From a phage, in assembly GCA_025611195.1 (NCBI GenBank), contig GCA_025611195.1_4718.1: a stretch of 64,000 nucleotides of DNA. One strand, 5' to 3'. The notes beneath the pieces are model-generated. The model was not told where the DNA came from. It ran no database searches and saw only the letters and a list, made by a program, of their open reading frames with translations. Every line of letters starts with the position of its first letter. Position 1 is the stretch's first letter. Position numbers and translations under genes: made by a program. Positions 2,975 through 60,585 of the stretch are shown here, in pieces.

Positions 2975-3006
2975 CCCTCCTCCTTCCCTTACGGGTTGGA
3001 GGAGGG
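2975..3006. terminator. conserved two-tier GC hairpin (family copy, inverted orientation)
   Basis: CCCTCCTCC/GGAGGAGGG 9-bp stem enclosing CCC-TTAC-GGG; lies between convergent genes; A10 run at 3021..3030. Confidence 0.45.
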
Positions 3007-3041
3007 TTATGCCGTCAAGCAAAAAAAAAATGATAGTCACG

Positions 3042-3063
3042 GACCCTCCAATGAAGGAGGGTC
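3042..3063. terminator. GC hairpin
   Basis: GACCCTCC aatgaa GGAGGGTC, 8-bp perfect stem just downstream of the 3077 gene stop. Confidence 0.4.
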
Positions 3064-3076
3064 GTGACCGTCAGTT

Positions 3077-3778
3077 TTAGGATGTAGATAATCTCGCGTA
3101 CTTCTGGCGAACATGGTTCTTACGGCGAACTTCGTCATCCTCGTCACGCCATTCGAGGTAAGCAACGAATCGACGTAACTGTGCTGCTGTCATCGTTGAC
3201 GATCGGTCTTCTACATCTAGAACGACGTAACGAACGCCACCAACATCATCGCATTCAACGTAATTGAATACCATAAGACCATCACCGTATTCAACGACGG
3301 TAACTTCGAACCGTTTCTCGAACAAATAAAACAGTTCTGATTCGATGATCATCGGAATGACGCTTATATCAGCACGATCGAGGATTTCCATCATCGCCCG
3401 TAACGCGCGAGGAGTATGGCGAGCGAACTGACCGTTAAAACGTTCTCTCATCGCTTGTTCCACGCCATCTGTTTTTGTTCCAAACCAAGGACGTATTACA
3501 GATTTCGGTGGTGTAAGACGAAAGCGATATGCTTGTATAAACAACAGAATATCAGCGGCGTTAGGAAATTCTTCCTGGTCTTCGTATATCTTGCGGATAA
3601 TATCCGGAATCGTAACCATCAAGTATTTCTTATCGCCTCCCACTTTCTCGAGATTAGCAATATGCCCTTCTACTACCGGCTGGTAAACGAAATTATACCA
3701 ATGACGGTATCTTGCGGCACGCTGGTAGTTCGGGATAAAATTAAGAACAACATTCACTGCACGTTTTAACGGGTTCAT
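3077..3778 (-). CDS. hypothetical protein
   Basis: ORF 3077..3781; ATG at 3778 with GAAGGA upstream. Confidence 0.55.
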   Translation of the reverse strand: MNPLKRAVNVVLNFIPNYQRAARYRHWYNFVYQPVVEGHIANLEKVGGDKKYLMVTIPDIIRKIYEDQEEFPNAADILLFIQAYRFRLTPPKSVIRPWFGTKTDGVEQAMRERFNGQFARHTPRALRAMMEILDRADISVIPMIIESELFYLFEKRFEVTVVEYGDGLMVFNYVECDDVGGVRYVVLDVEDRSSTMTAAQLRRFVAYLEWRDEDDEVRRKNHVRQKYARLSTS

Positions 3779-3792
3779 CAAAAGGATCCTTC

Positions 3793-4206
3793 TTATGTTC
3801 TAATATGCACATCGTCAATCCCCTCGGTAATCCAGCCGATGGGAAGGACAATCGTTGTTATCGTGTTATGGGTGTAGGGATTAAGAAAATGGAAATAGTA
3901 ATTTTTGTTAGACTGTTCGATGCGCAGCTCGAGCTGCGCATCTTCAGGTAACCGCAACCAAGCACCGTACAGTTCATTAAACTTACGCTGAATTTTACCG
4001 GGGTTCATTGGAACCCTACGACCACGGTGGCGTAGCTGGCGTAATGATTCAATCAAACACTCAGAGATACCCATCACCGTTCCGTTATCGCTTGTATCAA
4101 TAACGATGAACTCATGTGACCCACGGCCATGATAGAATCCAGCAACAAGCGCAACGGCGACAACGACAACCGTACCGATACCTACGTACCAATAGTAAAC
4201 GTCCAT
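3793..4206 (-). CDS. small membrane protein
   Basis: ORF 3793..4227 trimmed to ATG 4206 (GAGG upstream); N-terminal hydrophobic helix VGIGTVVVVAVALVAGF. Confidence 0.45.
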   Translation of the reverse strand: MDVYYWYVGIGTVVVVAVALVAGFYHGRGSHEFIVIDTSDNGTVMGISECLIESLRQLRHRGRRVPMNPGKIQRKFNELYGAWLRLPEDAQLELRIEQSNKNYYFHFLNPYTHNTITTIVLPIGWITEGIDDVHIRT

Positions 4207-4217
4207 AACAGCCTCAC

Positions 4218-4751
4218 TTATGCCCAATAGTCGGCGAGCGGTTTCACCTTATTAATGGGTAACTGTACTTTACCGATGTTCTCTACATCCGCATCAGCGT
4301 AGAGAACGATTTTATCGTCGTCTCTTTCCCAACGAATAATAAATCGACCAGGAAGAAGATTACCCTGTTCAAGAGATGCTGTAACCTGTTGTGTTAAAAC
4401 AGACAACCAAGCAGGCATCAGTGTTGCAATATCTAAGTCATTTGACCACTCAGCACGTTGCTCCACTGGACGCAACATACGTTGGACGGTGCGTTGAACT
4501 GTTGCGGTGATATAGCCTTTATCTTCGTCACTGATTGGATCCGGACGAGACACGAAACGTTCAGCAGGCTTACGGGAAATATACTCATGTAGTTTGATGA
4601 GTGGTGTTGTCATAGTACTCGCTCCATCAGAATGTAATTGGGTAACCCGCAGGGTTGTCTGCATGTTATTCAGAAGCGCAAAAGCGCCATAAACAACAAC
4701 GATACCAAGTACAGCCAAAACAGAAATCATTAACGTGTATTGCATTGTCAT
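4218..4751 (-). CDS. small membrane protein
   Basis: ORF 4218..4793 trimmed to ATG 4751 (GAGGGG upstream); N-terminal TM helix LMISVLAVLGIVVVYGAFALL. Confidence 0.45.
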   Translation of the reverse strand: MTMQYTLMISVLAVLGIVVVYGAFALLNNMQTTLRVTQLHSDGASTMTTPLIKLHEYISRKPAERFVSRPDPISDEDKGYITATVQRTVQRMLRPVEQRAEWSNDLDIATLMPAWLSVLTQQVTASLEQGNLLPGRFIIRWERDDDKIVLYADADVENIGKVQLPINKVKPLADYWA

Positions 4752-4846
4752 CTTCCCCTCATACGCATCTTGAAGATTAGTTAAAAACAACAAAAGAAAA
4801 AACGATATAAAGCAAGGTCCTCTGATATCAGAGGACCTTGGATCAA

Positions 4847-5503
4847 TTAGCTTGCAGCATCTTCATTCGTATCAGGTTTGCTTCCCCCTAACAAACCGTC
4901 AAACAGACCCGTATGTTTCAGGTAGAAGAGAGCGATAGCGCCCATCGCTGCTGCGCTCGTCGCCGTTAACGCAACCCCAGCACGATACTGCCATTTACGG
5001 TCAGGCTTTTGATCAAGCGCCATACGACGCATGTATTCAGCCTCTGCTTCATTCCGATGAATTTCGGATTCTGCCAGACGGGCTAAGGTATCGCGGTCCA
5101 GGTTATCATAACGTACGTTCATGGTGGTTTCCTCTTGTTTGGAAGTTGATTGCTTGGTGAATTCTTGATCAACAGTCGTTTCGGTTGGTTCAAACGGCTG
5201 GTTGTTCATTTTCTGATCTTGATTGGTCATGATAGACTCCTTCGATTTTTGAGACGAAATTGATTTAAACCATCGTGGATGGAGGTATTCGGTTTTACAT
5301 GTACAGTTAAGTTTCTCGTGCATGAAAGCGTAAAAACGTTTTGCGCCTACACGTAAGGCTTTCAGCATTATCCATCCACGAGCACTCAAACGGTGTAGCT
5401 GTTGTGGTATATCTAGTTTCCTAGCCAAGCGAAAGTATCTTTCAATCACTTCGATAGGAAACCATTGTTGTTCCACATCGGTGAGACTGAAAGTCTTATC
5501 CAT
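4847..5503 (-). CDS. hypothetical protein with C-terminal transmembrane anchor
   Basis: ORF 4847..5530 trimmed to ATG 5503; C-terminal hydrophobic segment VALTATSAAAMGAIALFYL; strong internal AAGGAG+ATG at 5229 could mark a second start. Confidence 0.45.
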   Translation of the reverse strand: MDKTFSLTDVEQQWFPIEVIERYFRLARKLDIPQQLHRLSARGWIMLKALRVGAKRFYAFMHEKLNCTCKTEYLHPRWFKSISSQKSKESIMTNQDQKMNNQPFEPTETTVDQEFTKQSTSKQEETTMNVRYDNLDRDTLARLAESEIHRNEAEAEYMRRMALDQKPDRKWQYRAGVALTATSAAAMGAIALFYLKHTGLFDGLLGGSKPDTNEDAAS

Positions 5504-5527
5504 GATTGAAATCTCGCTGGCTTGCTT

Positions 5528-5652: not shown

Positions 5653-6474
5653 ATGGATAAAGTATTTGTTTGTAAGCTGTTTACTAATGGCAATAGCCAA
5701 CCGATGTATCTGACCGATCCTGTTCTGGGTAATCGAAACAGCACCGTATTTAAAGAAGCTATCGATTACGCCAAAAACAAAGCCGTGAGAACACTGACGT
5801 CCGATGACTGTATCAATGGTATCACGTGGGCAGAGTTATTCGGCGATGCTGTTAGACACTTCATTCGGGATGCAAGAAAACAGGAAATCAGCCTCACGAC
5901 TATTGTTGTGCGCGAAAACGCAGAAATTTTATCAAACGTTTTGGTTGATTTTAGTGACGTTTACGTGTTTAATCCAGAGAACACTTTTGAACAATACCTT
6001 GCTGCCCTGAACAAACAGCTCGGTAAAGATATTCATCCCGAATTCGCCAAGTTAACGTATCAAGTACTTTTTAACGACGTCGATCCAAATACGAAGATCA
6101 ATACCAGCTTGTCGCCCCTGGTAAAGAAATACGGATCGGTTCTTGCTACAGCAACACCCGCCATCGATGGCGGTTATGATATCGAATTAGATGGTCCATT
6201 AAAAGAACAAGAACCTACTGGGGTTCGGGCAATACACCATACCCTCGTCGTTAAATCCGATGGTTGTGATGAGCATTACGCTATGACAAACGATGAAAAT
6301 AATCACCGTTTAACTCAAGCGATCGGTGTTCTACGTTATACCGAACCAACCACCGTAGACGATTATACTTCGACAACAACGCACACCACGTGTTTCATTT
6401 TCATTTATCCAAATGAAAGTGTGTACATTACTGACTGCTACGGCAACACTGTAGATAGCTTACGTCGTTATTAA
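5653..6474 (+). CDS. hypothetical protein
   Basis: ORF with ATG and AGGA upstream; followed by a UUCG-loop hairpin plus T-run. Confidence 0.55.
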   Translation: MDKVFVCKLFTNGNSQPMYLTDPVLGNRNSTVFKEAIDYAKNKAVRTLTSDDCINGITWAELFGDAVRHFIRDARKQEISLTTIVVRENAEILSNVLVDFSDVYVFNPENTFEQYLAALNKQLGKDIHPEFAKLTYQVLFNDVDPNTKINTSLSPLVKKYGSVLATATPAIDGGYDIELDGPLKEQEPTGVRAIHHTLVVKSDGCDEHYAMTNDENNHRLTQAIGVLRYTEPTTVDDYTSTTTHTTCFIFIYPNESVYITDCYGNTVDSLRRY

Positions 6475-6480
6475 TCATCG

Positions 6481-7122: not shown

Positions 7123-7154
7123 CATCCTCCCAACCCGTCAGGGAAGGGAGGATG
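7123..7154. terminator. conserved two-tier GC hairpin (family copy)
   Basis: CATCCTCCC/GGGAGGATG stem with loop AACCCGTCAGGGAA; between convergent genes. Confidence 0.45.
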
Positions 7155-14158: not shown

Positions 14159-14193
14159 CCTCCTTCCCCGGCCTTGGTGGCTAGGGAAGGAGG
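14159..14193. terminator. GC hairpin (family-like stem, different loop)
   Basis: CCTCCTTCCC/GGGAAGGAGG 10-bp stem; between convergent genes; A-rich run upstream. Confidence 0.45.
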
Positions 14194-14704: not shown

Positions 14705-15067
14705 TTAAAGCGTTCTGAAGAGTTCTGTATCGTTCTCGTCACGTAAACACGCTTCGTTCAACAATTCAGCTAACAACTTCGACCGAACTTCAACAAATGT
14801 CCTGAGGCGATGCTTCCATTCTAAACAGACGGTGTATGAACGATCTAACTTTTTGTGCTCGACGATAGATGCCGTGCAGTAGGTTTCGCGTTTATTCACA
14901 TCGTCCCAAACATCACGAATGATCGTCAAGCCTTTCTCAGTACATGTAAACGTTATAACGTAGTGATTGTTCGCTACTTCAACACGAACATCAGTAAATT
15001 CGTTTCGTAACGATGAGGTCTTAGTTAAACGATCAATAGCGAGCGATAAACCAACACGTTGTTGCAT
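14705..15067 (-). CDS. small hypothetical protein
   Basis: ATG 15067 with AGAGGGG upstream. Confidence 0.45.
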   Translation of the reverse strand: MQQRVGLSLAIDRLTKTSSLRNEFTDVRVEVANNHYVITFTCTEKGLTIIRDVWDDVNKRETYCTASIVEHKKLDRSYTVCLEWKHRLRTFVEVRSKLLAELLNEACLRDENDTELFRTL

Positions 15068-15068
15068 A

Positions 15069-15494
15069 TCAGATCCCCTCTTTCAGAATCTCATTAAGGC
15101 CGTCAGTAATCCAGTCGAACTTCGTCTTAATCATAGCTGGGGTCAATCCGTATACTTCCCACACAAGCTGTGGTTTATGTGTTCCATCGTCCAAACAAAG
15201 CACATCGATTGAGAGCATCATACCGCCCGTCAGTTTCATGTTCTCACAACTACGAAGATATGCGGATTCTAGCAATACTTTCCCTAACGCGGTGCAAGCA
15301 AACGTTAACCGGGAAGAATACATGTACGATGAAGTTTTACAGTAGGTTGCTGATATCGGTTGAATATGTTTGCGGAGTTTGGCGTCTTCACGTAAAAGCA
15401 GTAACGTGCGATGTAAACGCGTATGCTCGGTAACCGATGGGCTATATTCACCGATACGCTCTTCGACTACTGATTTAGGCCATTTAATTTCCAT
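15069..15494 (-). CDS. small hypothetical protein (MEIK- N-terminus)
   Basis: ATG with GAGGAAG upstream; abuts neighbouring genes. Confidence 0.45.
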   Translation of the reverse strand: MEIKWPKSVVEERIGEYSPSVTEHTRLHRTLLLLREDAKLRKHIQPISATYCKTSSYMYSSRLTFACTALGKVLLESAYLRSCENMKLTGGMMLSIDVLCLDDGTHKPQLVWEVYGLTPAMIKTKFDWITDGLNEILKEGI

Positions 15495-15509
15495 GTTATC
15501 TTCCTCGTA

Positions 15510-15953
15510 TTAACACTGTGTTCCATTCGATAAGCGGGTGGTATCAAAACGATCCAGTTGGTGTACAATGCTATCAGCAACACGATGCAAATAGTGTATT
15601 TTGTCCATTCGTGAAATCGCAGAAATCGTCCAGCAAGCCTCTGACGTCCAATAGGTGCCGTCTTCACTAAGGCTAACGTTATAAACTAACTTCGTCATCA
15701 CATTTCTCGCCTTATGCTCAGCAGACCAGAATATGTTTTCTAACACATCCTTCCCCGTTTGTGAAAACACGAACCCAAGCTTCACGTCGAAGTCGGATGC
15801 TTCAAGATTAACGCAGTGAAGATGATTCTCTAACGGCGCAAAAGAGGCTAAACGTTCCAGCGCATGTTGCAGTGTGGGATGATCGAGCTTTTCGAGATCA
15901 TCCACAGGTTGTTCAGGTACAATCGCGATCGATTTACAGAATTTAATTTCCAT
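15510..15953 (-). CDS. small hypothetical protein (MEIK- N-terminus, possible paralog of 15069..15494)
   Basis: ATG with AGAGGA upstream; same N-terminal MEIK start and similar length to neighbour. Confidence 0.45.
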   Translation of the reverse strand: MEIKFCKSIAIVPEQPVDDLEKLDHPTLQHALERLASFAPLENHLHCVNLEASDFDVKLGFVFSQTGKDVLENIFWSAEHKARNVMTKLVYNVSLSEDGTYWTSEACWTISAISRMDKIHYLHRVADSIVHQLDRFDTTRLSNGTQC

Positions 15954-16065: not shown

Positions 16066-16473
16066 TTATAGCGGCATCAGACGTTCTTTAAGTTGGGTTA
16101 ACTTATTTGCAACGATGTTCTCAACGCCGATCATCTTGTTCATGTTGTCGAGGGTATCCTGCCAGATGAAAATATCCACGGAACCGGTTCCGACTAACGC
16201 GTTCTCAGGACGATGGTCACGGGTCACGTAGCGTGGTCTCTGCGGGCAGGTTTGTAACTCGATCCAAAGCGCATCTAACGGACCACGGTCCGTGACACCT
16301 AAGGCGAAGAATTCACCTCGTACGACCAGAACATCATCAGCCGTCCTGACGCGGGTTGATCCTTCGTACACCAATTCCATCTTTGCTCGACAGGCTGGGT
16401 TCTCGTTCCACGCCTGGACGGCATCGGCAAGGGCTATTGACGTTGCGGTGGTGTTCGTTTGATCATGTTGCAT
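16066..16473 (-). CDS. small hypothetical protein
   Basis: ATG 16473 with AGGAG upstream. Confidence 0.45.
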   Translation of the reverse strand: MQHDQTNTTATSIALADAVQAWNENPACRAKMELVYEGSTRVRTADDVLVVRGEFFALGVTDRGPLDALWIELQTCPQRPRYVTRDHRPENALVGTGSVDIFIWQDTLDNMNKMIGVENIVANKLTQLKERLMPL

Positions 16474-18821: not shown

Positions 18822-18911
18822 CTAAAAAAGATCCTCTGTTTTTCACGTTAATTAAACAACGTATTGATTTCTATTTAACGCAATACGAACATTGTACGTA
18901 TGCATCATGAA

Positions 18912-18929
18912 GGTAATATAGTCGTGAAA
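18912..18929 (-). promoter_or_regulatory. conserved TATATTAC-containing motif (candidate phage promoter)
   Basis: Plus-strand GGTAATATAGTCGTGAAA; about 90 nt upstream of the first gene of the small-gene cluster (ATG 18821). Confidence 0.45.
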
Positions 18930-19031
18930 GGATTTGCATTAAAGCAAGGGTTTTGTTTTAAGAAGGGATGGATTTAGAAGAGGTGTTTCAAGGAAGGTAA
19001 ACGAGGATAGGTATTTTGATTTAAGTAAGAT

Positions 19032-19396
19032 GTTATCTGTATTTGTTAAAAGTGTATTGTCTATGTTATCTTGTTTATCTTAGGTTATGTCTTATTGTTT
19101 AATCGTTTTATCTTTGTAGGTTAAATTGTTCTAGTTATCTTGTTGTATAAAGTAATTCAATAAGCTTATCTTCAAAATGATAAATAACTTGTGTTTATTG
19201 TACATGCTAATCAAAAAACCATTTGTGATACTCTTCTTCACGTTGTTCATCAGAGTATCTCGTCTATACTCATTGCATTCGTATACGACATAACCGTTAT
19301 ACGCTAACGCTACGCTTATAGCTTGATAACTCTAAGGATAAAAACATAAACTCGCTTCGCTCGTTTAGTTTTTCTTTTTCTTAGAGTTATCTTGTT
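19032..19396. repeat. iteron-like direct repeats (GTTATCTTGTT) in AT-rich non-coding region
   Basis: Exact 11-mer at 19065..19075, 19134..19144 and 19386..19396, plus at least four degenerate TTATCTT copies at 19032..19180. Confidence 0.5.
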
Positions 19397-19557
19397 GCTC
19401 GTCTCTAAAGGACTTCGCTCCTCCCCCGTCCCCCGAAGGGGCCGAGGTCGTGGAAATTTTACTTTCCAAATACATTTACAACATCTGTAAACTTTTACTC
19501 CAGGTACTTAATCTTATCATTAGAAATTATAAAGAGAAGAATAAACACAAACATAAA

Positions 19558-19589
19558 CCTTCCTCCAACCCAACAGGGAAGGAGGAAGG
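19558..19589 (-). terminator. conserved two-tier GC hairpin (family copy)
   Basis: CCTTCCTCC/GGAGGAAGG stem, loop AACCCAACAGGGAA; directly after stop of 19603..20496. Confidence 0.45.
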
Positions 19590-19602: not shown

Positions 19603-20496
19603 TTATTCGGAAACGTTGTAACCGAATACCGCTTTACCGTAGGTGTGAGTACCGTCAGCTAATGACAGCACCAACACGTGGTTGTACGTAGCGTTAACGC
19701 CTTTATCGGTGGAATCGGTGGTAGCACCGTTATAGACGAAAGTAGCCGTTTGCAGATTGGCTTTCAGCTCGGTGATGATCTCGTCGCCCACACCCGTCTG
19801 CTCTTTGATCAGCGTGGTCAGGTTACCTGCCAGGCTTTCATCGATCTTGGTTTCGTTACTGGTAATCGCCTGTAAACCTGCGGTGTAGGTACTGAAGTCT
19901 AACGGATAGGTTAACAGACGCGCTGAGGTCTTGGTGCCATCGCCTTCATCAACGTAGGTTAAGTTACCCAGGTTGGTAACCTTGATGATGTTGGACAGAT
20001 CCAGCGTGGTGTTATAAACCTTAACTTGAACAGAACCGTACCAAGCCAGCGAATCTTCTTTGGCTTTCAGGGTGATCGTCTGGATACCATGATCGTCGAA
20101 GGTAACCGGCGTAGCTAACGTATCGGCTTTGATGTCTTTCGCTTTATCCAGGAACTTCTCACCGGAAGGTGTGATCATACCGTAGCGTTGAGCTACAAGG
20201 TCAACCACATCACCGATGGTGGTGTTTTTATTAACGTTAACGCGTACGGCGATCTTCTGGAACCACTTAGCCAGATCCAGACGATGATAGGTAACATCGC
20301 GGTCATTGAAGTAAGGAGTACCTTCACCAGGGCTAAGCGTTAAAGTTGCATCTGGAGCAGAATCGCTTTTGGATTTAAGAACGTATTTAAGGTCGGTGGG
20401 TTTGAAGTTGGCACCCGTATCGGCGTTGAGTGTGTTAATCTCATCAACGATAAGTTGCCAAGGTGTTTTTAAAGTAAGTGATACTTGAGCTGTCAT
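19603..20496 (-). CDS. putative virion structural protein (YxRxDL / LAW[TY]GSV paralog family)
   Basis: Motifs YHRLDLAKWF and SLAWYGSVQVKVY shared with 20643, 31567, 33389 and 34251 genes; fairly host-adapted codons; GAGGAAG SD. Confidence 0.55.
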   Translation of the reverse strand: MTAQVSLTLKTPWQLIVDEINTLNADTGANFKPTDLKYVLKSKSDSAPDATLTLSPGEGTPYFNDRDVTYHRLDLAKWFQKIAVRVNVNKNTTIGDVVDLVAQRYGMITPSGEKFLDKAKDIKADTLATPVTFDDHGIQTITLKAKEDSLAWYGSVQVKVYNTTLDLSNIIKVTNLGNLTYVDEGDGTKTSARLLTYPLDFSTYTAGLQAITSNETKIDESLAGNLTTLIKEQTGVGDEIITELKANLQTATFVYNGATTDSTDKGVNATYNHVLVLSLADGTHTYGKAVFGYNVSE

Positions 20497-21384: not shown

Positions 21385-21416
21385 CCCCTCCTCATCCGTT
21401 ATTGGGTGGGGAGGGG
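21385..21416. terminator. GC hairpin with U-rich tail
   Basis: 13-bp stem CCCCTCCTCATCC/GGGTGGGGAGGGG (two G-U pairs), loop GTTATT, then TCTTATACGTCTTTAT; between convergent genes. Confidence 0.45.
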
Positions 21417-27409: not shown

Positions 27410-27919
27410 TTACCCCATGTAACGTTTTTGGCCGAGGATGAAGACTTTGTTAAATACCACCGAAGTGATTCCTGATGCGTTACAGCTTACCTGCCCGACG
27501 CGAATTGCTGTTGACGTATCGACCCCAGCACTACTCTGCCAGCTCCAATCAATCGATCCGTCTTTCTGATGAATGAAAAGATAACCGGTTTTGTTCGCCC
27601 AGTCGGAAGTAAGATTTTTGATGTCTAACGTTCCTTTCGCCAGAATATAGTCGGTACCGGCGATCATGACGGGGATTTCAGGATACGAGATTACCGTACC
27701 GCTAGCGGTAACGTTGCTGATGCGATCACTACGGATATCGGTACAATCACCGAAATACGCTACGGGGAGTATCCCCTTAGGTAGCTTTTTGTCGATTCTC
27801 GTATCGATCGTGCTTTTATCGGGTGCGTCGATTTGCGCTGCAGTGACTTGGTTAGGGTTATCCTTCCTTGCATACCACGTCGTCATGCGAGCACCCAACT
27901 CACTCATTTTTGTGCCCAT
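27410..27919 (-). CDS. small tail-fibre-associated protein
   Basis: ORF 27410..27925 (GTG) trimmed to ATG 27919 with AGGA upstream; N-terminal RKDNPNQVTAAQIDA motif. Confidence 0.5.
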   Translation of the reverse strand: MGTKMSELGARMTTWYARKDNPNQVTAAQIDAPDKSTIDTRIDKKLPKGILPVAYFGDCTDIRSDRISNVTASGTVISYPEIPVMIAGTDYILAKGTLDIKNLTSDWANKTGYLFIHQKDGSIDWSWQSSAGVDTSTAIRVGQVSCNASGITSVVFNKVFILGQKRYMG

Positions 27920-30234: not shown

Positions 30235-31515
30235 ATGTATACATTGGTAAAAACTTACGGATTACCCGTAGGTTCCGGCACGGCCTGGACAGCACTTGAG
30301 GCGGGTGAAAGTGTCCTGAGTACGTTGTTCTCAGCGTATCAAAAACTCAAGATCCAGGTTCATGAAAGCTATGCTGACCAGCAACAAGTTATTGATCTGT
30401 ACACATTTCAATCCGAGCTTCAAAACAGCAATGACACGCTCAATGCGTGGTTGAAAGCGAAATCGGATGCGCACACCAACCTTCGAGGACAGCCTGGTGA
30501 GCTGTCGATTAAAACCCACAAGCTTTATTGTCACGACGTTATTACCGTAGGCTTTCTCCCTAAAGTCGGTAATAGCGGTTATCATCCGAGCAACGCGATC
30601 CCTGAGTCGGAACGTACCGATATCCTGTTGACGAAAGCGGATACGAATTACGAAAATATCGGCAAACATTGCTTGTTCACCGTAGGCGGTTATGTTCATC
30701 CTCATGTTTACGGTAAAGACGTCGGTGTCTATATCCAGGGTGGGTTCGAGACAGCACAGCGTAGCCAAGAAAACGATATCGGCATGATTGATTTTAGTCG
30801 TATCGGGAGTTTGGAAATCCACGCTATCACAGAAGAGATGCTTGCTGATTCCACGAAGCTCTTGCCGTATAAGGACGAGATGTACTTACGGCTACCACGC
30901 AAGGTCGCCGAAGATGAAACCGTCGCGCTTGTGTTCGGGGGATATCTACACCTTCTTGACGATTGTTACACGATCGTTAGTGACACGACGGCAAAAATAA
31001 ACTGCAGAAACATGTTTCTGTATGAAAGATACTTCCGCTCCCGCAAATACCTTGATTTAACGTCTCTTGGTATTCTGTTGAACGAAGAAGACCCGCAGTC
31101 CGATATTGTTGCCAATCGTTTACTGTCTGATAAGACTTTAAAAGCATGGGTGACACACCCCTGCAGTTTCTGGGTGTATATCAAAGCAACATCGATTCAG
31201 GTTACACAAGAACCTTTACCACGAAGTGGTGTACCAGGACAATATTTCTTAGGTAAGAAACCGGAAGGACTGATTCGAGCTGACCTCGGTGAGTTACCGG
31301 CTTACGTGCAGACCTATGAAAAACCGTTATGGGTACTTCACTCACGCTGGGGACTTCGTAAGAACATGTTGTTTGAAAACACGTTGTACAAACATACACG
31401 CGTTAAGCGGCTTAACGATACACCTTATCTTCACCAGGTCTGGTTGGAAACGCACGCGACGTTGCAGACAGTACATAAGCTCGAATTGATCGATTCCAGT
31501 CAGAAAAACAAATAA
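30235..31515 (+). CDS. hypothetical protein in tail module
   Basis: 426-aa ORF, ATG with AAGGGGG upstream; only + gene within the tail module. Confidence 0.5.
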   Translation: MYTLVKTYGLPVGSGTAWTALEAGESVLSTLFSAYQKLKIQVHESYADQQQVIDLYTFQSELQNSNDTLNAWLKAKSDAHTNLRGQPGELSIKTHKLYCHDVITVGFLPKVGNSGYHPSNAIPESERTDILLTKADTNYENIGKHCLFTVGGYVHPHVYGKDVGVYIQGGFETAQRSQENDIGMIDFSRIGSLEIHAITEEMLADSTKLLPYKDEMYLRLPRKVAEDETVALVFGGYLHLLDDCYTIVSDTTAKINCRNMFLYERYFRSRKYLDLTSLGILLNEEDPQSDIVANRLLSDKTLKAWVTHPCSFWVYIKATSIQVTQEPLPRSGVPGQYFLGKKPEGLIRADLGELPAYVQTYEKPLWVLHSRWGLRKNMLFENTLYKHTRVKRLNDTPYLHQVWLETHATLQTVHKLELIDSSQKNK

Positions 31516-31525
31516 ACAAACATAA

Positions 31526-31557
31526 CCCTCCTCCAACCCATCAGGGAAGGAGGAGGG
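31526..31557. terminator. conserved two-tier GC hairpin (family copy)
   Basis: CCCTCCTCC/GGAGGAGGG stem, loop AACCCATCAGGGAA; between convergent genes. Confidence 0.45.
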
Positions 31558-40591: not shown

Positions 40592-40622
40592 ACGGATGTA
40601 AAAAAAAATAACACATAGTTAA

Positions 40623-40657
40623 CCTTCTCCCCAACCCGATGAGGGAAGGGGAGAAGG
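40623..40657. terminator. conserved two-tier GC hairpin (family copy)
   Basis: CCTTCTCCCC/GGGGAGAAGG stem, loop AACCCGATGAGGGAA; A9 run at 40600..40608; between convergent genes. Confidence 0.45.
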
Positions 40658-46881: not shown

Positions 46882-47031
46882 CGTCAACCTCCATCAGATT
46901 GAAAACTATCACGCATAATGCATTTCCCTTTTCTTGTTCTTATCAAGCCGACAGCCGACGGTTTCAGCATCGTCCCTAGCGCGAGAACGACCTTACGTGT
47001 TGTCTATGCCTTATTAATCGCAGGCGTCTGT

Positions 47032-47055
47032 CACCTAGGTAATGTAAGCGTCAAA
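47032..47055 (-). promoter_or_regulatory. variant of the conserved motif (candidate promoter)
   Basis: Plus-strand CACCTAGGTAATGTAAGCGTCAAA; about 150 nt upstream of ATG 46881. Confidence 0.35.
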
Positions 47056-47089
47056 TTTTTTCTATTTATAACGATAAACGGCATAGAAA

Positions 47090-47119
47090 CCTCCCCCAAC
47101 CCTTACGGGCTGAGGGAGG
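47090..47119 (-). terminator. GC hairpin (family copy, inverted orientation) in capsid-gene 3' region
   Basis: CCTCCC/GGGAGG stem enclosing CCC-TTAC-GGG; a second hairpin CCGGA..TCCGG lies at 47140..47155. Confidence 0.4.
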
Positions 47120-47218
47120 CTGACTTATGTATCACGGTGCCGGATGAATGTCCGGTGCAATGAAACCATCCGCAACGTTGTCGTCAAGAATATCATCCAA
47201 CGAAGCAGCTACGGTAGT

Positions 47219-49441
47219 TCAGTTAGTCTGAACCGGCAGCTTGATGTTTTCAGTGTAGACCTTACGCAGGTTCACAACGTTAATCAGACCCAGCAGCGGG
47301 CAGTTGTTAACGAAGCGGCAGCGAGGCTGAACCATGGTTTCTTTAGAAACCTGACCGTTACGGGTAACCTGAGCAACAGATACCAGTTCCGGTACATACA
47401 GGAACATACCGAAGGTCAGCGGATCCGGAGAACCCTGGATACCACGAGACAGGGTCACGAAGATCTTATCACGCAGCAGGACGTTCGGGTTATCTACAAC
47501 CACGAAGTTGAAGCTTACACCAACGGTACGGAAATCACCATCGGTCTGCAGGAACTGCGGGATGTAGTTGTCGGTTGCTACTACGCAACGCGGTTTCTCA
47601 TCAGCGTTGGAAGACAGCAGCTGCAGAGCTGGCTGATAACCAGACTCGGAGTACATGCGATATGCCATCTCACGAATCACGTTCATGATCGCAGCGGACA
47701 CTTCGGCACGACGTTCTGCAGTGGTGGTACCCTGAACAGATTTCGCCAGGTCCAGATTGATTTCTTCGAACCACGGACGGATCAGGTAACGACCGAAACC
47801 TTCGATCTGGATATCACCGAACTGACGGAAGCGAGAGGTCGCAACCGCTTTCAGTGCATCTTTGTAGCTGAACAGTTTCTCAACCATCAGGTTGTCGAAA
47901 CGTGCGTTAGCAGCTTGGATCAGAACGTCCAGGTCAGCAGCGTTTTCTTCCCAATCCAGCGGACGAGGAATAGAGAACGGAGCCAGCAGGCCGATTGCGT
48001 AACGTTCTTGCTTCATGTTGAAGTCAAGGTGTTTACCACGTTCACGACGGTTGCTGTTGTTACGGCGAATACGCAGTTCGTAACCAACCAGTTTGAAGCT
48101 CAGGTCGTCAGCCAGGTCTTTAAATTCTTGGCTCTTACGCGGCTGTTCGATGTTGTCCTGATCAACCAGGCGATACAGTTCAGCGTTAGCACCGTTAACA
48201 CGCAGACCTGCTTTCTCTACGTTGGAAGAACCGTAAACTTCGATAGCCAGCTGAGCAGCAGATTTCGCATCGATGATGTCCTGCAGCGCTTCAGCTTTCG
48301 CGCCTTTAACGTCAACGGTGTTCTCATCAACGAAGATGGAGTGGGTGTCGAACGCCAGGGTCATTTTGCGGAAGTCGCCTTCCAGGGATTTCTGGAAACC
48401 GTTGGTAATCAGACCGGATACGTCGAACGGAACGTAAGAGGTCTTGCTGTGCTTGGCTGATTTGATTTCCACCAGGATTTTGGTCAGCGTGATCTGAGCA
48501 TCCAGCGCGTCGGTGTTGTCGCTGTAACCGTTAGCCAGAATGCTATCGTCTTCAGCGATACCGATCATGTCGATCAGTTTATCAACAGCCAGGTAAGACG
48601 TTTTGTAAGTTACGCCTTTGATCTCGATGTCGCGCGGAGCAACGATAGTTTTGTCAACGAAGTACTGCGCGTTAGCATCGTCAGCACGATAGATCGGATG
48701 CAGATCGGTCACGTCGTTGGACAGAACGTCGTTGTACATGAACGCATCCAGCAGCGGACGACGTACCCAATCAGCCGGAGTACCGTCAGCGTTACGACGC
48801 AGGTGGTTGAACACCAGCGGACGACGGAAAGATACATCATAACCGATCTGGTTCGGAGCCAGAACGATGGTGTTGTACAGTTCGTTACCCATGCGGCTCA
48901 GACGAGAAGCCTTCACGTTGAACACAACGGAGTACGGCATCATGTCACGCAGTTCTTTCTGGTCGTAGGACAGCTGAACCAGTTCTTCAGATTCGCAACC
49001 GCAGGAATCAGCAGCCATCATGACGAAGTTAGAGCTGTCAACTTCACGGCCAGACGGAGTGGTGCTGATGTTCATGGAACGTGCTTGTTTAGCATATTCC
49101 ACCGGGTTGCCATGAGCCAGCATGATCAGTGCTGCTGCACGAGCCTGCTGTGCGTTCATGGTGAACAGCTGTTCTTCAATACGCTGCTTCTCTTCCGGAG
49201 TGGTGGTTTCGAAGCCCAGCATGGACAGAACCGGTTCTTCTGCTTTACGGATGTCGCTGCTGAAGCTCTTAACATCCATATCGTTAACCAGTTTGTCCAT
49301 GGATTTGAAATCAACCTTAGAAGCAGATTCCATAGACAGGAAGGTGTTCTCCAGACCTTTGTCTGCTGGTTTGCTACCATTAGCGGTCAGGAACTGGCGA
49401 GTGGCCGCGACCTGTTGGCTAAGAAGGGTTTTATCATTCAT
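47219..49441 (-). CDS. putative major capsid protein (jumbo-phage type)
   Basis: 740 aa, strongest host-optimal codon bias in the window, AAAGGA SD; size fits phiKZ-like capsid proteins; the assignment is inferred, not motif-proven. Confidence 0.6.
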   Translation of the reverse strand: MNDKTLLSQQVAATRQFLTANGSKPADKGLENTFLSMESASKVDFKSMDKLVNDMDVKSFSSDIRKAEEPVLSMLGFETTTPEEKQRIEEQLFTMNAQQARAAALIMLAHGNPVEYAKQARSMNISTTPSGREVDSSNFVMMAADSCGCESEELVQLSYDQKELRDMMPYSVVFNVKASRLSRMGNELYNTIVLAPNQIGYDVSFRRPLVFNHLRRNADGTPADWVRRPLLDAFMYNDVLSNDVTDLHPIYRADDANAQYFVDKTIVAPRDIEIKGVTYKTSYLAVDKLIDMIGIAEDDSILANGYSDNTDALDAQITLTKILVEIKSAKHSKTSYVPFDVSGLITNGFQKSLEGDFRKMTLAFDTHSIFVDENTVDVKGAKAEALQDIIDAKSAAQLAIEVYGSSNVEKAGLRVNGANAELYRLVDQDNIEQPRKSQEFKDLADDLSFKLVGYELRIRRNNSNRRERGKHLDFNMKQERYAIGLLAPFSIPRPLDWEENAADLDVLIQAANARFDNLMVEKLFSYKDALKAVATSRFRQFGDIQIEGFGRYLIRPWFEEINLDLAKSVQGTTTAERRAEVSAAIMNVIREMAYRMYSESGYQPALQLLSSNADEKPRCVVATDNYIPQFLQTDGDFRTVGVSFNFVVVDNPNVLLRDKIFVTLSRGIQGSPDPLTFGMFLYVPELVSVAQVTRNGQVSKETMVQPRCRFVNNCPLLGLINVVNLRKVYTENIKLPVQTN

Positions 49442-51861: not shown

Positions 51862-51887
51862 ACGCAAAAAAAAAAGATTGTACGGTT

Positions 51888-51919
51888 CCCTCCTCCAACC
51901 CGTAAGGGAAGGAGGAGGG
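51888..51919. terminator. conserved two-tier GC hairpin (family copy)
   Basis: CCCTCCTCC/GGAGGAGGG stem, loop AACCCGTAAGGGAA; A10 run at 51866..51875; between convergent genes. Confidence 0.45.
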
Positions 51920-55295: not shown

Positions 55296-56663
55296 TTAAA
55301 CGGTTGGACGAACGGTATTGTCTTTTTCTGGTGCGATCCATAACGTGACCGTACCATGGCATGTCCACTGTGGTTCACGTACAGAAGAACCCGCCATCGT
55401 TACAGCGCAATCGGTACGCATGATGACCCCATATGCTTCGCAGAGGTTGTTATCCTGCATCCACACAACTTTAGCGGGCATACCGGGATACAACAGATCC
55501 ATGTTTGCGTATTCCCACACCAACTGCATTGTTCTACCGCGTAATCCAGCAGTATTGCTTATTTCACGCCATCGGTTATCGGTTACGCGTCCCATCCCTT
55601 TCGCCACCTTCACGTTATCGCTACGCTCTTCAGTTACGTACTCGCTAACGTTTACGGTACGACTGATTATGGTATCGCCCCCCTTTGATAATGTCATCCC
55701 CTGACTCATCTGACTTGCCGAAACAAAACGCCCACCCGCATTACCTAACAACGAAGCCGCGTTATTGACGTCGCTTACCGACGCCCCTCTCGTACATGCA
55801 ATTTCCACGTATTTGTCGCGATTGATCCAGGTCTTGTCCATACCCGGAAACATATCGGCAGGATAGTTGTAAAAGATAGCTGTACGTCGACCGTCAGAGA
55901 AACGGGTTTCGTCGTATAAGGGGTAGATATACAGATACGGGGATTGATAATAACAACCGACATCTGCTGAATAAATACCAACCTGGTTCTGGATTTTATC
56001 TACGAGATCCATCGCATTGGTACCGTGTGGAAGAATAAGCAACTTGAATGGGTTGTCGTTATTCGGTGCAACGATATCCACACCCTGCATTTTGAATCCG
56101 GTGTCAGCTTCAACCGCAGAAAGTATCTTGCTGAATTCAAGGCGCAACACATCCAGCACTTTCGATCCAGTATAGTTCTCACCGGTTTCTGATTGCATGA
56201 AGCTTTCAAGAACAGGATCGAACAGTTGAAATTGAAGATCGACCATTTGTTCGTAGTCTTTCTTCGAAGAATCGGTTGCGGTACGTTCGTCGGTAGCAGA
56301 CATACGACTGTCTACGGTTGTTAAACAGACCGCCCGGTAGACATAAGCCTGTGCGGCATCGTCTACGGTTTGGCGTTGTCCGCGCATCAGGCTGTACGCC
56401 TGCACGATGATGCGCATTTTAAGTTGTTGTTGGTACGGTAGAATGTATTTTCCGTAACTGCCTGGTGGAAACTTTACAGAGATATAAAGTTCATCCCCTG
56501 CGTTACGTTCATAGTCTCGATACGTGTGGACTTGAGTCACTAAAGGAACAGACACCGTCATTGACGGCGTGATTAATTCCGCGGTGACTTTATACGCAAC
56601 AGCAACAGCTTCCTGCGCAAACGTACCGATATACCGTCCTAACGGCGTCTGTTTGTAATCCAT
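55296..56663 (-). CDS. putative virion protein
   Basis: 455-aa ORF in a tightly overlapping run of long minus-strand genes near the capsid gene. Confidence 0.55.
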   Translation of the reverse strand: MDYKQTPLGRYIGTFAQEAVAVAYKVTAELITPSMTVSVPLVTQVHTYRDYERNAGDELYISVKFPPGSYGKYILPYQQQLKMRIIVQAYSLMRGQRQTVDDAAQAYVYRAVCLTTVDSRMSATDERTATDSSKKDYEQMVDLQFQLFDPVLESFMQSETGENYTGSKVLDVLRLEFSKILSAVEADTGFKMQGVDIVAPNNDNPFKLLILPHGTNAMDLVDKIQNQVGIYSADVGCYYQSPYLYIYPLYDETRFSDGRRTAIFYNYPADMFPGMDKTWINRDKYVEIACTRGASVSDVNNAASLLGNAGGRFVSASQMSQGMTLSKGGDTIISRTVNVSEYVTEERSDNVKVAKGMGRVTDNRWREISNTAGLRGRTMQLVWEYANMDLLYPGMPAKVVWMQDNNLCEAYGVIMRTDCAVTMAGSSVREPQWTCHGTVTLWIAPEKDNTVRPTV

Positions 56664-57271: not shown

Positions 57272-58584
57272 GGCTCAATAGCTCCTGCTCGTAACAGCAT
57301 AATAACGAACGGTGTGAAATAATAACGGTCCAGCGGAGAAAGCAACGGTAATGCGTCAACCATCTGTTTCAGTGCTGGGTGACTGATCGCTTTCTCATCG
57401 ACCATATCACGCACCATACTCTCAATGATTGTCATTGGGGCTTGGTTGCGATAGAAAGCCTCTGTGAAAACATAGTACGGATCGTCTGCTACCGATGGAA
57501 ATAACGGAACGTCGTCATACTCCATCGATGTATGATTGGTCACCAATGGGTTTGTCGGCGGTGTGTTTTCAGGCACAGCCAACTCTTTACCTACGTCTTC
57601 ACCGAGCGACGTGGTCGCAGGCCACATACAGAATCGCGCCCCGCTAAAACGAATCCCACCTGCAGCTGGGTACTGATAGAAACGCTTTGTTGACAACAGT
57701 GTGAATTTCACCGTCAACCGCGCCTCGTCTTCCCGACGTCCGTCCATGACCCATTCAAAGACAGAAATCGCGTTCGCTTCCTGGCTATCATCTACATTAA
57801 GACGTCCGAAGTTCCATGAGGGTTTTCCTTCAAGCGACGACCATAATTTCGTAAACGCGTTAACACACCAGGGGTCGTAGGTTGCAGCATCTTGACCAGG
57901 AACAAGCAGCGTGTTTAATTCACGGCTGTAAAATTCGTGGTAATACGCGTGACAAAGTCCCAGCGCACGACGGAGATAATCATACTTACGATTGTATTTC
58001 TCCGTTGCCATTACGGGATGTTTTCCGTGCTTTAACTGGTCTTGGTCGTACAGTGTATCCTCAACGATTTTCGCTTCCAGTTCGATAAGCTGTTTTTCGT
58101 CAAGAATACGCTGGAAGGAAATATCGCATTCGTAAGCCGGTGCTAAGCTGATGTTCTTCGGTGTGATTCTGGTGATAGTGTACACCGCGATACGATGATC
58201 GAGACCGGAGATTAACAGCATGTTACCTAAAAGAGGAACCGATACTGCCGGAAGTATACACGTACCCTCGGATTGAAAACGTGCGGTACCGTTGTCGTAC
58301 GACGGCGTCAATGACGACATTAACTTGATAGGGTAATGTCTGATACGACGGTACTGTTGTTCGGCGATATCGCGGTTAGCTTGAAAACTGCTTTGTTCAT
58401 CATCACGACCGAGAATCTGTTCGTAATAATCACATTCTACGGAATAACCGGATGCGTAATTCACCAGTCCGATTTGACTATTGTATTGCTCATCCACCAC
58501 CGCAGAACGATAAACATCGTCGCGAGCCTTCGCAGGCTGTTGGGGGTTGATGATGGGTTTCGCGGGCTTCTTAGCGAGCGCCAT
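57268..58584 (-). CDS. putative virion protein
   Basis: 438-aa ORF overlapping both neighbours by a few nt. Confidence 0.55.
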   Translation of the reverse strand: MALAKKPAKPIINPQQPAKARDDVYRSAVVDEQYNSQIGLVNYASGYSVECDYYEQILGRDDEQSSFQANRDIAEQQYRRIRHYPIKLMSSLTPSYDNGTARFQSEGTCILPAVSVPLLGNMLLISGLDHRIAVYTITRITPKNISLAPAYECDISFQRILDEKQLIELEAKIVEDTLYDQDQLKHGKHPVMATEKYNRKYDYLRRALGLCHAYYHEFYSRELNTLLVPGQDAATYDPWCVNAFTKLWSSLEGKPSWNFGRLNVDDSQEANAISVFEWVMDGRREDEARLTVKFTLLSTKRFYQYPAAGGIRFSGARFCMWPATTSLGEDVGKELAVPENTPPTNPLVTNHTSMEYDDVPLFPSVADDPYYVFTEAFYRNQAPMTIIESMVRDMVDEKAISHPALKQMVDALPLLSPLDRYYFTPFVIMLLRAGAIEP

Positions 58585-60136
58585 AGCGTTTCACTCCTAC
58601 GATGGTACCGACAAGAATTCTCGGTACGAATAAACTACGATGTTTGAACCATGAAGCGGTTGTTGGGATACGTTTGATGGCTTCGATAAGCCCGATTAGC
58701 GTATAACATCCCCGGCTGTTCTTCTTAGGCCAGTACTTTTTATCTAAACCTAATACCGCAAACAGTTCATCCACCAGATTGGGATAACAACACAACGCTT
58801 CAAGCGTCTCAACCTGTAACTGACTTAAATCTAACAGTATCGCCAGACGAACGTGGTAATCACTCCGTAAGTCTAACTGATCTTTCGCTTCAAGATCACC
58901 AACGTCGGTTAATGTCCACGCGTCTCTTGCGTAGCGGTATTTACCCTTCCAAACCTCAAGGAAAAAAGGAGATTGGTAATGGCATTTTGACCATTCTGGG
59001 TACTCGCGGAACCACCGAACAAGATCGGGATGGAATTCACCTTCTTCGGCTAACGCGTCCAACGTCACCAACAGGTTAGGTTGTTCAGGATCGATAGCGA
59101 GTAGCGCGGTGAAAAGCGTGCTTGATGGAAGCTCGGTCTCCACGCTCGATGGTGGCAGCCATTCATCCAAATCGGGATACCGATACGCTTGAATCGATGC
59201 ACCCTGTTCCGGCAAGAACGAATCACGAAGAATGTCCTGATACTGCACCACCATACCACCACGACGTGCACGGGATTTATCACGCACCGAGAGGCTCGGT
59301 TTGTAAAGGTACTCTTCGGGGAGTATCTGTTGGTGTACTTGAACCGGATACCGTGCTACGATGTGTGTTGGTGTGTCGTACGTGTAACGGTAAGAGAATG
59401 TAGCGTTGTACGAAGAACTGTTCTCATTCTTCTCTGGCTTCGGAGCGTCAGTGAAATCAAATTGACCAGAGATCTCTTCTTGCATTTCCCTGATAACCAA
59501 TTTAACGCTCTTACCGTCACCTGCGACTGTCGTCATGGTGGTTGCACGGTTGTCGAACCCGTCTCTAAGGTATTCGCTGAACTTATCCTTGTAACCCGCT
59601 ATTGCTTCTCGGTGTGTGTGAATAACTTTTAACAGCATGAGAAACTGTGTAGGGATCGCATAGCTGTATTCAGCACTGAGAAACGCGGCAACATGCTGAC
59701 TTGTGAGCAAACGTTTCATGTCGTACCACCAACGTTCGGCGGTGACCTGATCCTCGAACCGTTTGGTGATCTGCATGGTCGCAACCATCGTACTGTAAAC
59801 AGGTACTAGCGATACGCCAAGGTTACGGTCTTCAAATACTGGAAGACTGTTTCGTTTGTAAACGGTATCGTACATGGACGCCTGTTCTTCAGGAACAACG
59901 TTAAGCTCGATTTGGATAAACCCGTCAGCAGGCCCTTTTACATCCTGATCAACAACTTGCGGCGGTTGCTCGTTCGCAGCGCTCATTTTAGCGTGAAGAG
60001 CTTCCCCTCGAAAAAGAATATTCTCGCGATTGTAATCCCACCCGCAAAGCTCGCTGATCTGCCGTAATACCGCGATTGCAACTGGACGTGTTACCGTCGC
60101 GTATACGTCATTGATTTTTCGATCAAGTTTAGGCAT
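58571..60136 (-). CDS. putative virion protein
   Basis: ORF 58571..60163 trimmed to ATG 60136 with GAGGA upstream, overlapping the upstream stop. Confidence 0.55.
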   Translation of the reverse strand: MPKLDRKINDVYATVTRPVAIAVLRQISELCGWDYNRENILFRGEALHAKMSAANEQPPQVVDQDVKGPADGFIQIELNVVPEEQASMYDTVYKRNSLPVFEDRNLGVSLVPVYSTMVATMQITKRFEDQVTAERWWYDMKRLLTSQHVAAFLSAEYSYAIPTQFLMLLKVIHTHREAIAGYKDKFSEYLRDGFDNRATTMTTVAGDGKSVKLVIREMQEEISGQFDFTDAPKPEKNENSSSYNATFSYRYTYDTPTHIVARYPVQVHQQILPEEYLYKPSLSVRDKSRARRGGMVVQYQDILRDSFLPEQGASIQAYRYPDLDEWLPPSSVETELPSSTLFTALLAIDPEQPNLLVTLDALAEEGEFHPDLVRWFREYPEWSKCHYQSPFFLEVWKGKYRYARDAWTLTDVGDLEAKDQLDLRSDYHVRLAILLDLSQLQVETLEALCCYPNLVDELFAVLGLDKKYWPKKNSRGCYTLIGLIEAIKRIPTTASWFKHRSLFVPRILVGTIVGVKRYGAR

Positions 60137-60512
60137 CGATGTCATCCTCGCTAATTTCACCATATCCTTGTTGTCGATATCCGGTATAATGAATCAGACT
60201 GCTCTGTAGAAGCTCTTTAACGAGCCCTAGACGCGTTTTATCTGCTTCATTGGACGTTTCCATTAATGTTTCTATTTCGTTGTTTAAAACAGCGTATAGC
60301 GCTTCTAACGGCAATCCTTGGATGATTGGTTTGCTGGTGCCTTCTGGCAATGCCGCAACAGGAATCTGCACGACGGTTTCATGCGCAGTATGCGGGTTAA
60401 TACGACAAATATACATACCTGGTACTGAATGTCGCGGGCACGCCGCTACCAAGCATGTCTGTTGTTGCGCACCGTTAAGTGCGAGTGGTAGAAATTTTGC
60501 TTCACGTCTCAT
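60129..60512 (-). CDS. small hypothetical protein
   Basis: 127-aa ORF. Confidence 0.45.
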   Translation of the reverse strand: MRREAKFLPLALNGAQQQTCLVAACPRHSVPGMYICRINPHTAHETVVQIPVAALPEGTSKPIIQGLPLEALYAVLNNEIETLMETSNEADKTRLGLVKELLQSSLIHYTGYRQQGYGEISEDDIDA

Positions 60513-60563
60513 CGCAGATTCCTGTTTGAAAGATAAGATATCACATGATGGTCGACAGCATAA

Positions 60564-60585
60564 AGCCCACCCCGAAGGGCGGGCT
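60564..60585 (-). terminator. hairpin with UUCG tetraloop (minus strand)
   Basis: Minus-strand AGCCCGCCC-TTCG-GGGTGGGCT followed by TTATGCTG, 16 nt after stop of the 1127-aa gene. Confidence 0.45.

Follow-up and report, generated by a model that had tools for sequence, protein, structure and literature searches.

What are the near-identical GC hairpins that recur at gene ends along a 64,000-nucleotide (nt) stretch of phage DNA (GenBank assembly GCA_025611195.1, contig GCA_025611195.1_4718.1; the whole stretch is called the window here), and do they act in transcription, in RNA processing, in translation or as DNA sites? An earlier note, made from the letters alone, had listed ten copies and had proposed bidirectional terminators or RNA-processing sites, with structured ribosome-binding sites as a further option. 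Our analysis indicates that the ten hairpins are very probably transcription terminators of an intrinsic type, each a hairpin followed by a short tail, which would serve the RNA polymerases of a Goslar-like jumbo phage.

The window is ~94-95% identical overall to Escherichia phage vB_EcoM_Goslar (94.9% over 12 kb), and no other phage record matched it at that level in a similarity search. Goslar is a circularly permuted jumbo phage of E. coli with a genome of 237,307 bp (record NC_048170.1); window coordinates run ~3,780 ahead of Goslar coordinates, and window positions 1 to ~3,780 correspond to the end of the Goslar record. Goslar is a nucleus-forming chimallivirus (Chimalliviridae), as its record lists a nuclear shell protein, the tubulin PhuZ and several split RNA polymerase beta-like subunits. 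Nucleus-forming jumbo phages use their own multisubunit RNA polymerases for gene transcription, and the identity and annotation of Goslar point to virion and non-virion enzymes of this kind in the window phage as well. At least two more Goslar-like genomes, at roughly 90-98% identity, were found among viral metagenome contigs.

A complete family of intergenic hairpins

All ten sites share the two-tier architecture that the earlier note had described. The canonical plan, seen in the copies at 2975, 7123, 19558, 31526, 40623, 51888 and 55260, consists of a pyrimidine arm of 9-10 base pairs (bp), AA, CCC, a loop of 4-5 nt, GGG, AA and the purine arm; the copies at 14159 and 21385 are looser variants. 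The sites are listed below with two further hairpins; convergent junctions are given with the ends of the flanking open reading frames (ORFs), and bit scores and E-values are those of the covariance model described after the list.

2975..3006, convergent junction (+ ORF ends 2968, - ORF ends 3077): two-tier hairpin, -27.9/-25.9 kcal/mol, 60.4 bits; AA/GUAA form on the - strand; tails TTATGCCGT at 3007-3015 (+) and AATATGTT (-)
3042..3063, - strand, 13 nt past the stop of the - gene: companion hairpin GACCCTCC-AATGAA-GGAGGGTC, -23 kcal/mol, followed on the - strand by 11 nt and then T10 (3030 to 3021); loop flipped in a sister genome
7123..7154, convergent junction (+ ORF ends 7118, - ORF ends 7172): two-tier hairpin, 58.1 bits; tails AAATATGCCGT (+) and GTTTTTATGCGC (-); centre flipped in locus L022
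14159..14193, convergent junction (14135 / 14209): variant two-tier hairpin (outer CCTCCTTCCC, inner GGCC/GGCT), -29.1/-27.0 kcal/mol, E=8e-4; inner part reverse-complemented relative to Goslar; Goslar orthologue annotated as putative terminator
19558..19589, - strand, 13 nt past the stop of the - gene 19603..20496: two-tier hairpin, 57.2 bits; tail on the - strand only (TTTATGTTTGT)
21385..21416, convergent junction (21185 / 21480): variant hairpin with a continuous 18-bp stem, formed through G.U pairs on the + strand only; -30.6 (+) vs -21.9 (-) kcal/mol; Goslar orthologue annotated as putative terminator
31526..31557, convergent junction (31515 / 31567): two-tier hairpin, 64.3 bits; tails AATATGTTGT (+) and TTATGTTTGT (-); Goslar orthologue annotated as putative terminator
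40623..40657, convergent junction (40591 / 40674): two-tier hairpin with a 10-bp outer stem and a 5-nt loop; on the - strand, tail TTAACTATGTGTTA and then T9 (40608 to 40600)
47090..47119, - strand, 99 nt past the stop codon of the homologue of the major head protein gene (47219..49441, -): hairpin with a continuous 15-bp G.U-containing stem and a GUAA loop on the - strand only; - tail TTTCTATGCCGT
51888..51919, convergent junction (DnaB-like helicase homologue ends 51861, - ORF ends 51935): two-tier hairpin; + tail TTATGACCG; on the - strand, 12 nt and then T10 (51875 to 51866); centre flipped in locus L024
55260..55291, - strand, 4 nt past the stop of the - gene 55296..56663: two-tier hairpin, 63.2 bits; tail on the - strand only (GTTTATGCTGT)
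60555..60593, - strand, 8 nt past the stop of the - gene 60601..63984: simple phiKZ-type terminator GCCCGCCC-TTCG-GGGTGGGC followed by TTTATGCTGT; Goslar orthologue annotated as putative terminator

A chance origin of this family is excluded. The core AACCCGTMAGGGAA, allowing at most one mismatch, occurs five times in the window against 0.05 expected, and perfect hairpins with a 7-bp stem and an all-pyrimidine 5' arm number 10, compared with 0.63 in shuffles and with a single hairpin whose 5' arm is all-purine. Folded one by one, the ten copies are stable on both strands, at -18.5 to -30.6 kcal/mol (z = -3.9 to -8.8). The 12 most stable 44-nt folds of the window are these ten copies plus the hairpins at 3042-3063 and 60558-60593. 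When seven copies were used to build a covariance model, it returned exactly the ten sites at E<0.02 and no others in the window, which indicates that the list of ten was complete. No Rfam 15 family matched the window at the gathering score, and none matched at E up to 1 in a locus with a canonical copy.

All ten copies are intergenic, mostly 4-31 nt after a stop codon; a predominance of copies inside coding regions, which would have argued against a terminator or processing role, was not observed. Seven of the ten lie at convergent junctions (2975, 7123, 14159, 21385, 31526, 40623 and 51888), in agreement with the claim that most do, and the remaining three lie between co-directional - genes (19558, 47090 and 55260). 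Some hairpins are overlapped by mechanically called ORFs (e.g. 31342..31536 and 46918..47163), none of which is annotated in Goslar and which, judged from the sequence, look like antisense shadow ORFs.

The same placement extends across the Goslar genome, where pyrimidine-arm hairpins were scanned against the 247 annotated coding sequences. Although the genome is 92.9% coding, 39 of 41 pyrimidine/purine hairpins are fully intergenic (P ~1e-42), with a median distance of 17 nt from the stop codon. Such a hairpin is present at 18 of the 20 convergent junctions; of the other two, one carries a similar hairpin whose arm includes one purine, and at the other the genes overlap. Hairpins are also found at 20 of 196 tandem (- -) junctions, at none of 11 tandem (+ +) junctions and at 2 of 20 divergent ones. 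Their length and stability are greater at convergent than at tandem junctions (32 vs 27 nt, P=1.5e-4), and two-tier copies are enriched at the former. When two-tier and simple hairpins were considered as markers of gene class, no clear pattern emerged, two-tier copies following structural as well as replication genes. The Goslar record labels three of the ten orthologous hairpins as putative terminators (11186, 17603 and 27746), together with the 55080 site; the hairpins that follow the genes for the major head protein and the DnaB-like helicase are among those without a label.

A strand-specific tail downstream of the hairpin

The ATG that often follows the purine arm is part of a tail, (T)TATG-Y-Y-GT (Y, pyrimidine), located 3' of the hairpin on the transcribed strand. 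Examples of this box in the window are TTATGCCGT, ATATGCCGT, TTATGTTTGT, TATGCTGT and TATGTTGT. A TATG tail is present on 15 of the 20 strand-sides in the window, and 6 of the 10 occurrences of TATGYYGT abut family hairpins. Across Goslar, TATG lies within 11 nt downstream of the hairpin on 45 of 82 strand-sides, against an intergenic background of ~5%. The orientation of the tail is clearest at the tandem (- -) junctions of Goslar, where, of 21 cases, 18 have TATG on the transcribed strand and 5 on the opposite one (Fisher P=1.3e-4); the three tandem sites of the window behave in the same way. The CATAA upstream of the palindrome is the tail of the opposite strand.

Pairing follows the direction of transcription as well. 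The hairpin at 47090 has its continuous stem only on the - strand and reads AA/CU on the + strand (-29.7 vs -18.5 kcal/mol), and at 21385 the changes in the stem between genomes preserve pairing on the + strand. The restriction of G.U pairing to one strand at these two sites (- at 47090, + at 21385), along with the oriented tail, suggests that the element is an RNA read along transcription rather than a DNA site.

These features do not amount to a canonical intrinsic terminator, a description that we rejected. In scans of the window for a hairpin followed by a T-run, none of the ten sites showed a U-tract, defined as 5 or more T in 8 beginning 0-2 nt past the stem, so that such scans miss all of them.

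The earlier note had described most copies as flanked by A9-A10 runs; only three sites are. Homopolymer runs of at least 8 occur in the 64-kb window only at 3021-3030, 40600-40608 and 51866-51875, and all are A-runs on the + strand. On the - strand, they read as T9-10 runs that lie 11-14 nt past a convergent-junction hairpin, and they may serve as a back-up stop signal.

Match to the mapped terminators of phiKZ

ONT-cappable-seq of phiKZ yielded 61 mapped terminators with the consensus BCCYCCCCHWWDGGGRRGGBYTTATKYYGT, a stem-loop followed by TTAT, as well as six overlapping bidirectional terminator regions between convergent genes; T012 (CATAATGCCCTCCCGCAATGGGAGGGCTTATGCTGT), with its opposite-strand partner T013, is an example from the supplement, and T019 and T025 also have T-runs past the tail (Putzeys et al. 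2024, microLife, PMC10914365). In most of the 13 phiKZ terminators that we checked, the nominal 3' end falls 0-3 nt past the TTATG/TTATA box, with positions good to ~2 nt because the sequences were taken from the PDF supplement of the bioRxiv version. In 201phi2-1, a phiKZ-like motif A (n=59) has been reported, along with a motif B that elongates the hairpin when the two are combined; 15 terminators are bidirectional, and the eight terminators tested were strong in vivo in a two-reporter trap (PMC11512511).

The rigid phiKZ consensus matches the window at 60555-60584 (-) with three mismatches and matches two or three Goslar sites, with no matches in shuffles. Its exact geometry (7-bp stem, 4-nt loop, 2-nt spacer) is found only at 60555-60584 and in none of the ten two-tier copies, which we therefore regard as relatives with an elaborated hairpin. 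A model built from only 11 phiKZ terminators has as its top seven window matches either family sites or 60558; the best are 55260 (E of 0.002) and 60558 (0.0036), the others being individually weak. At tandem junctions, the matches of this model lie on the transcribed strand.

Selection and covariation

An alignment of 36 canonical copies, drawn from the window, Goslar, two sister genomes and one unrelated contig, shows pairing in 98.6% of cells and changes on both sides in six of the nine outer-stem pairs (C-G to U-A and the like), while in controls with slid partners pairing drops to 50-67%. The inner CCC/GGG never varies among the 36 copies, and AA/AA almost never. Between the window and its Goslar orthologues, none of 192 stem positions differs, against a genome-wide mismatch of 5.85% (P=9e-6), and none of 32 internal-loop adenines, whereas the tetraloops differ at 6 of 33 positions, above the 5.85% background (P=0.011). 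Selection therefore acts on the helices and on AA/AA, not on the loop. The earlier view that the loop itself is conserved and that selection acts on sequence as well as structure thus holds for AA/AA and CCC/GGG, which are invariant, and fails for the tetraloop, which varies above background and lies in a centre that flips.

The tetraloop is found as GTAA, GTCA, ATCA, AACA, TTAC or GATGA across sites. Comparison of the window with Goslar and with loci L018, L022 and L024 revealed that the centre (internal loop, inner stem and tetraloop) is reverse-complemented between ~90-97% identical genomes at 7123-7154, 51888-51919, 3042-3063 and 14159-14193. At the flipped sites, the arms are identical and the flanks identical or nearly so. 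The flips are minute inversions between the inverted-repeat arms, so that a given site tolerates either orientation of the centre. Strand-specific selection on a GNRA tetraloop (GUAA) was considered and rejected, as loops vary and the centres at 7123, 51888, 3042 and 14159 flip.

A bias in orientation was also observed. The AA/GNRA form lies on the + strand in 14 of the 16 canonical copies in Goslar and in 6 or 7 of 8 in the window; since the - strand holds ~87% of genes, the UU/UUAC form is the one found in most mRNAs.

Proposed mechanism and alternative explanations

Taken together, position, strand-specific features and the phiKZ match support termination, which would be bidirectional at the seven convergent junctions. 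In the mechanism that we propose, the nascent RNA would fold into a very stable hairpin, its 5' arm pyrimidine and its 3' arm purine, 4-31 nt past the stop codon (at a few sites, up to ~200 nt). The U-tract would be replaced by a short tail of specific sequence, (U)UAUG-Y-Y-GU, and the RNA would be released at or just after this tail, where we would expect the RNA 3' ends of this phage to lie. Between convergent genes, one palindrome with two tails (CATAA-hairpin-TTATG) would stop polymerases arriving from both directions, while between co-directional genes the tail is found on the transcribed strand only. The stable 3' hairpin probably also protects the end of the mRNA. As to which polymerase would respond, the fact that phages infecting three host genera have kept the tail favours phage enzymes over the host polymerase.

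Several points weigh against termination. We found no transcript-end data for Goslar or its relatives in the literature, so that termination is proposed by analogy, and the long-read 3' ends of phiKZ cannot fully separate termination from processing. The absence of a U-tract implies that the release mechanism is not the textbook one, and the reversed arm polarity in Erwinia phage Ea35-70, described below, indicates that the pyrimidine-first design is not essential. In addition, the mechanism does not account for why the AA/AA internal loop is invariant, why the AA form favours the + strand or why T9-10 runs lie 11-14 nt past some hairpins on the - strand.

A more specific version of the stop signal, which we consider improbable, assigns its sequence-specific half, in nucleus-forming jumbo phages, to the tail UUAUG-YY-GU instead of a U-tract. 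Its TATG would be read again in the non-template strand by the integral sigma-like promoter-recognition subunit of the elongating polymerase, causing a pause during which the hairpin releases the RNA, and the two-tier hairpin would be a Goslarvirus reinforcement at head-on junctions. This idea is modelled on sigma-dependent pausing and draws on the fact that TATG is the same tetranucleotide as in the phiKZ late promoter, (-3)TATG(+1).

It is unlikely that the hairpins are instead RNA-processing or 3'-end stabilizing elements, in which case the polymerase would read through, nucleases would trim the transcript back to the hairpin and the hairpin would protect the mRNA. The great stability of the hairpins at gene ends on both strands and the lack of a U-tract are compatible with this explanation. 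However, a block to exonucleases needs no conserved, transcription-oriented downstream tail, and the presence of a hairpin at nearly every convergent junction fits the need to stop colliding polymerases. Typical RNase III substrates have ~20 bp or more of double-stranded RNA, and the helices here fall below that length at 12-18 bp, being 12-13 bp split by a 2x2 loop in the canonical copies and 15-18 bp with G.U pairs in the variants. Mapping of 3' ends in phiKZ does not by itself distinguish termination from trimming (PMC10914365), but the eight 201phi2-1 terminators that were strong in the two-reporter trap in vivo argue for termination (PMC11512511).

It is very unlikely that the copies are DNA-level repeated palindromes without an RNA role, that is, REP-like sites associated with recombination or replication or bound by a DNA-binding protein. 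Bacterial REP elements and the promoter-early stem-loop (PeSL) cassettes of T4-type phages are multi-copy, near-identical intergenic palindromes with signs of exchange or inversion, and the window resembles them in its many near-identical copies, with identity of up to ~50 nt between sites, and in the inversion of the centre between sister genomes, a DNA-level event. The window copies differ from both in their compensatory stem changes, which a protein-binding site would not tolerate, in the G.U pairing at 47090 and 21385, which preserves the stem on the transcribed strand alone, and in a tail co-directional with transcription; their placement 4-31 nt after stop codons also argues against a pure DNA site. 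No transposase or promoter was found in association with the window hairpins.

A terminator-promoter cassette, in which the TATG of the tail would be a late promoter that restarts transcription at its G, was considered and rejected as very unlikely. The four bases are indeed those of the late promoter consensus of the phiKZ non-virion RNA polymerase, (-3)TATG(+1) (PMC7618050). Among the ~60 sites compared from the published phiKZ start-site table, however, transcription starts ~20-45 nt downstream of the terminator TATG and not on it (T011/P012, T014/P016, T015/P017 and T021/P023 are examples), and promoters at convergent junctions would make only antisense RNA.

The suggestion that the AGGAGG purine arm, 5-8 nt before an ATG, is a structured ribosome-binding site that allows translation when the hairpin opens is hardly credible: although GGAGG does lie 2-7 nt before an ATG at most sites, the ORFs that begin at these ATGs have just 3-33 codons and, at convergent junctions, run antisense to the converging gene; the ATGs belong to a TATG-YY-GT box that stands on both flanks and is conserved in phiKZ terminators; and Ea35-70 has the same tail although its purine arm, being the 5' arm, lies far from the ATG.

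Genomic context

Two observations concern the wider window. Between positions 1 and 60000, promoter-like sites of the sigma-70 type occur at about half the frequency seen in shuffles (18 vs 33.8, 10 vs 26.8 and 13 vs 28.7), a scarcity that fits a phage not dependent on the host RNA polymerase. In addition, positions 18822-19557 (Goslar 14972-15825) form an AT-rich stretch of ~735 nt that contains no ORF longer than 48 codons and has no annotation in Goslar. A strong hairpin lies inside it at 19405-19448 (CTCCTCCCCCGTCCCCCGAAGGGGCCGAGG, -21.6 kcal/mol), and a non-coding RNA or small proteins could be encoded there.

An exact 18-mer scan of viral contigs returned the Goslar-like genomes and three unrelated contigs with the same inner module, roughly the number expected by chance for an 18-mer, though each match is a real hairpin. 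In these contigs, L006 (1950-1997; IMGVR_UViG_3300020577_003345) and L007/L008, the inner module AACCCGTAAGGGAA sits inside other outer stems, and no BLAST similarity to Goslar or to the window was found. The module in L006 is followed by a T-tract, as in a canonical terminator.

Comparison with known systems

Rho-independent terminators resemble the window elements in having a GC-rich hairpin just after the stop codon, a palindromic form that serves both strands and A-rich sequence upstream that mirrors U-rich sequence downstream. The window elements differ in that no U-tract of at least 4 directly follows the stem, where there is only the UUAU of the conserved UUAUG-YY-GU.

Elements of this kind have already been described in phiKZ and 201phi2-1, and three Goslar orthologues are already annotated. 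phiKZ shares with the window a 5' arm rich in pyrimidines and a 3' arm rich in purines, flanked by CATAA on the upstream side and by TTATG-YY-GT on the downstream side, the location after stop codons, bidirectional pairs between convergent genes and the use of its own RNA polymerases. In contrast, the phiKZ hairpin has a single 7-bp stem and a 4-nt loop, where the window has a 9-10 bp outer stem, AA/AA and an inner CCC-loop-GGG, and the spacer from stem to TATG is 0-7 nt in the window compared with a fixed 2 nt plus TTAT in phiKZ. RNA 3' ends have been mapped in phiKZ, while the window phage is known here from its sequence. For 201phi2-1, the likeness is one of description, since its motifs are presented only in figures, and both host and phage genus differ.

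In 50 kb of Erwinia phage Ea35-70 (L028), TTATGCCG was found 10 times where 1.4 would be expected, and no fewer than 8 of these copies adjoin intergenic hairpins. Its gene-end hairpins, comparable to those of the window, read GCATAA-hairpin-TTATGCCG, but the purine arm comes first (GAGGAGAGG...CCTCTCCTC) at 6042-6104, 16103-16185 and 27568-27618, the hairpin at 16103-16185 being itself two-tier. Given that the arms are exchanged and the tail is unchanged, the tail is the conserved element and the polarity of the arms is not. Klebsiella phage Miami has CCTCCTACCC-GTAA-GGGTAGGAGG between convergent genes, annotated as a terminator, and Serratia phage Totoro has CCTCCTCCTACC-CGTTAA-GGTAGGAGGAGG, followed by GATATG. 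Our literature search found no transcript-end data for Ea35-70, Miami or Totoro. In Miami and Totoro, the stems are continuous, of the CCTCC-TA-CCC-GTAA-GGG-TA-GGAGG type, with TA/TA where the Goslar-like phages have AA/AA, so that the AA/AA loop is a peculiarity of the Goslar clade.

What is new here is modest: the two-tier form with its invariant AA/AA, the conservation of the tail across genera and the flipping of the centre. The hairpin with its tail provides a usable rule for marking operon ends in Goslar-like phages, and the hairpins themselves are candidate compact bidirectional terminators for engineering. Because Goslar grows on E. coli, it offers a practical system for dissecting termination without a U-tract by a sigma-less RNA polymerase with split subunits. 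The combination of hairpin and TTATG-YY-GT, mapped experimentally only in Pseudomonas phages, is conserved in jumbo phages of E. coli and Erwinia.

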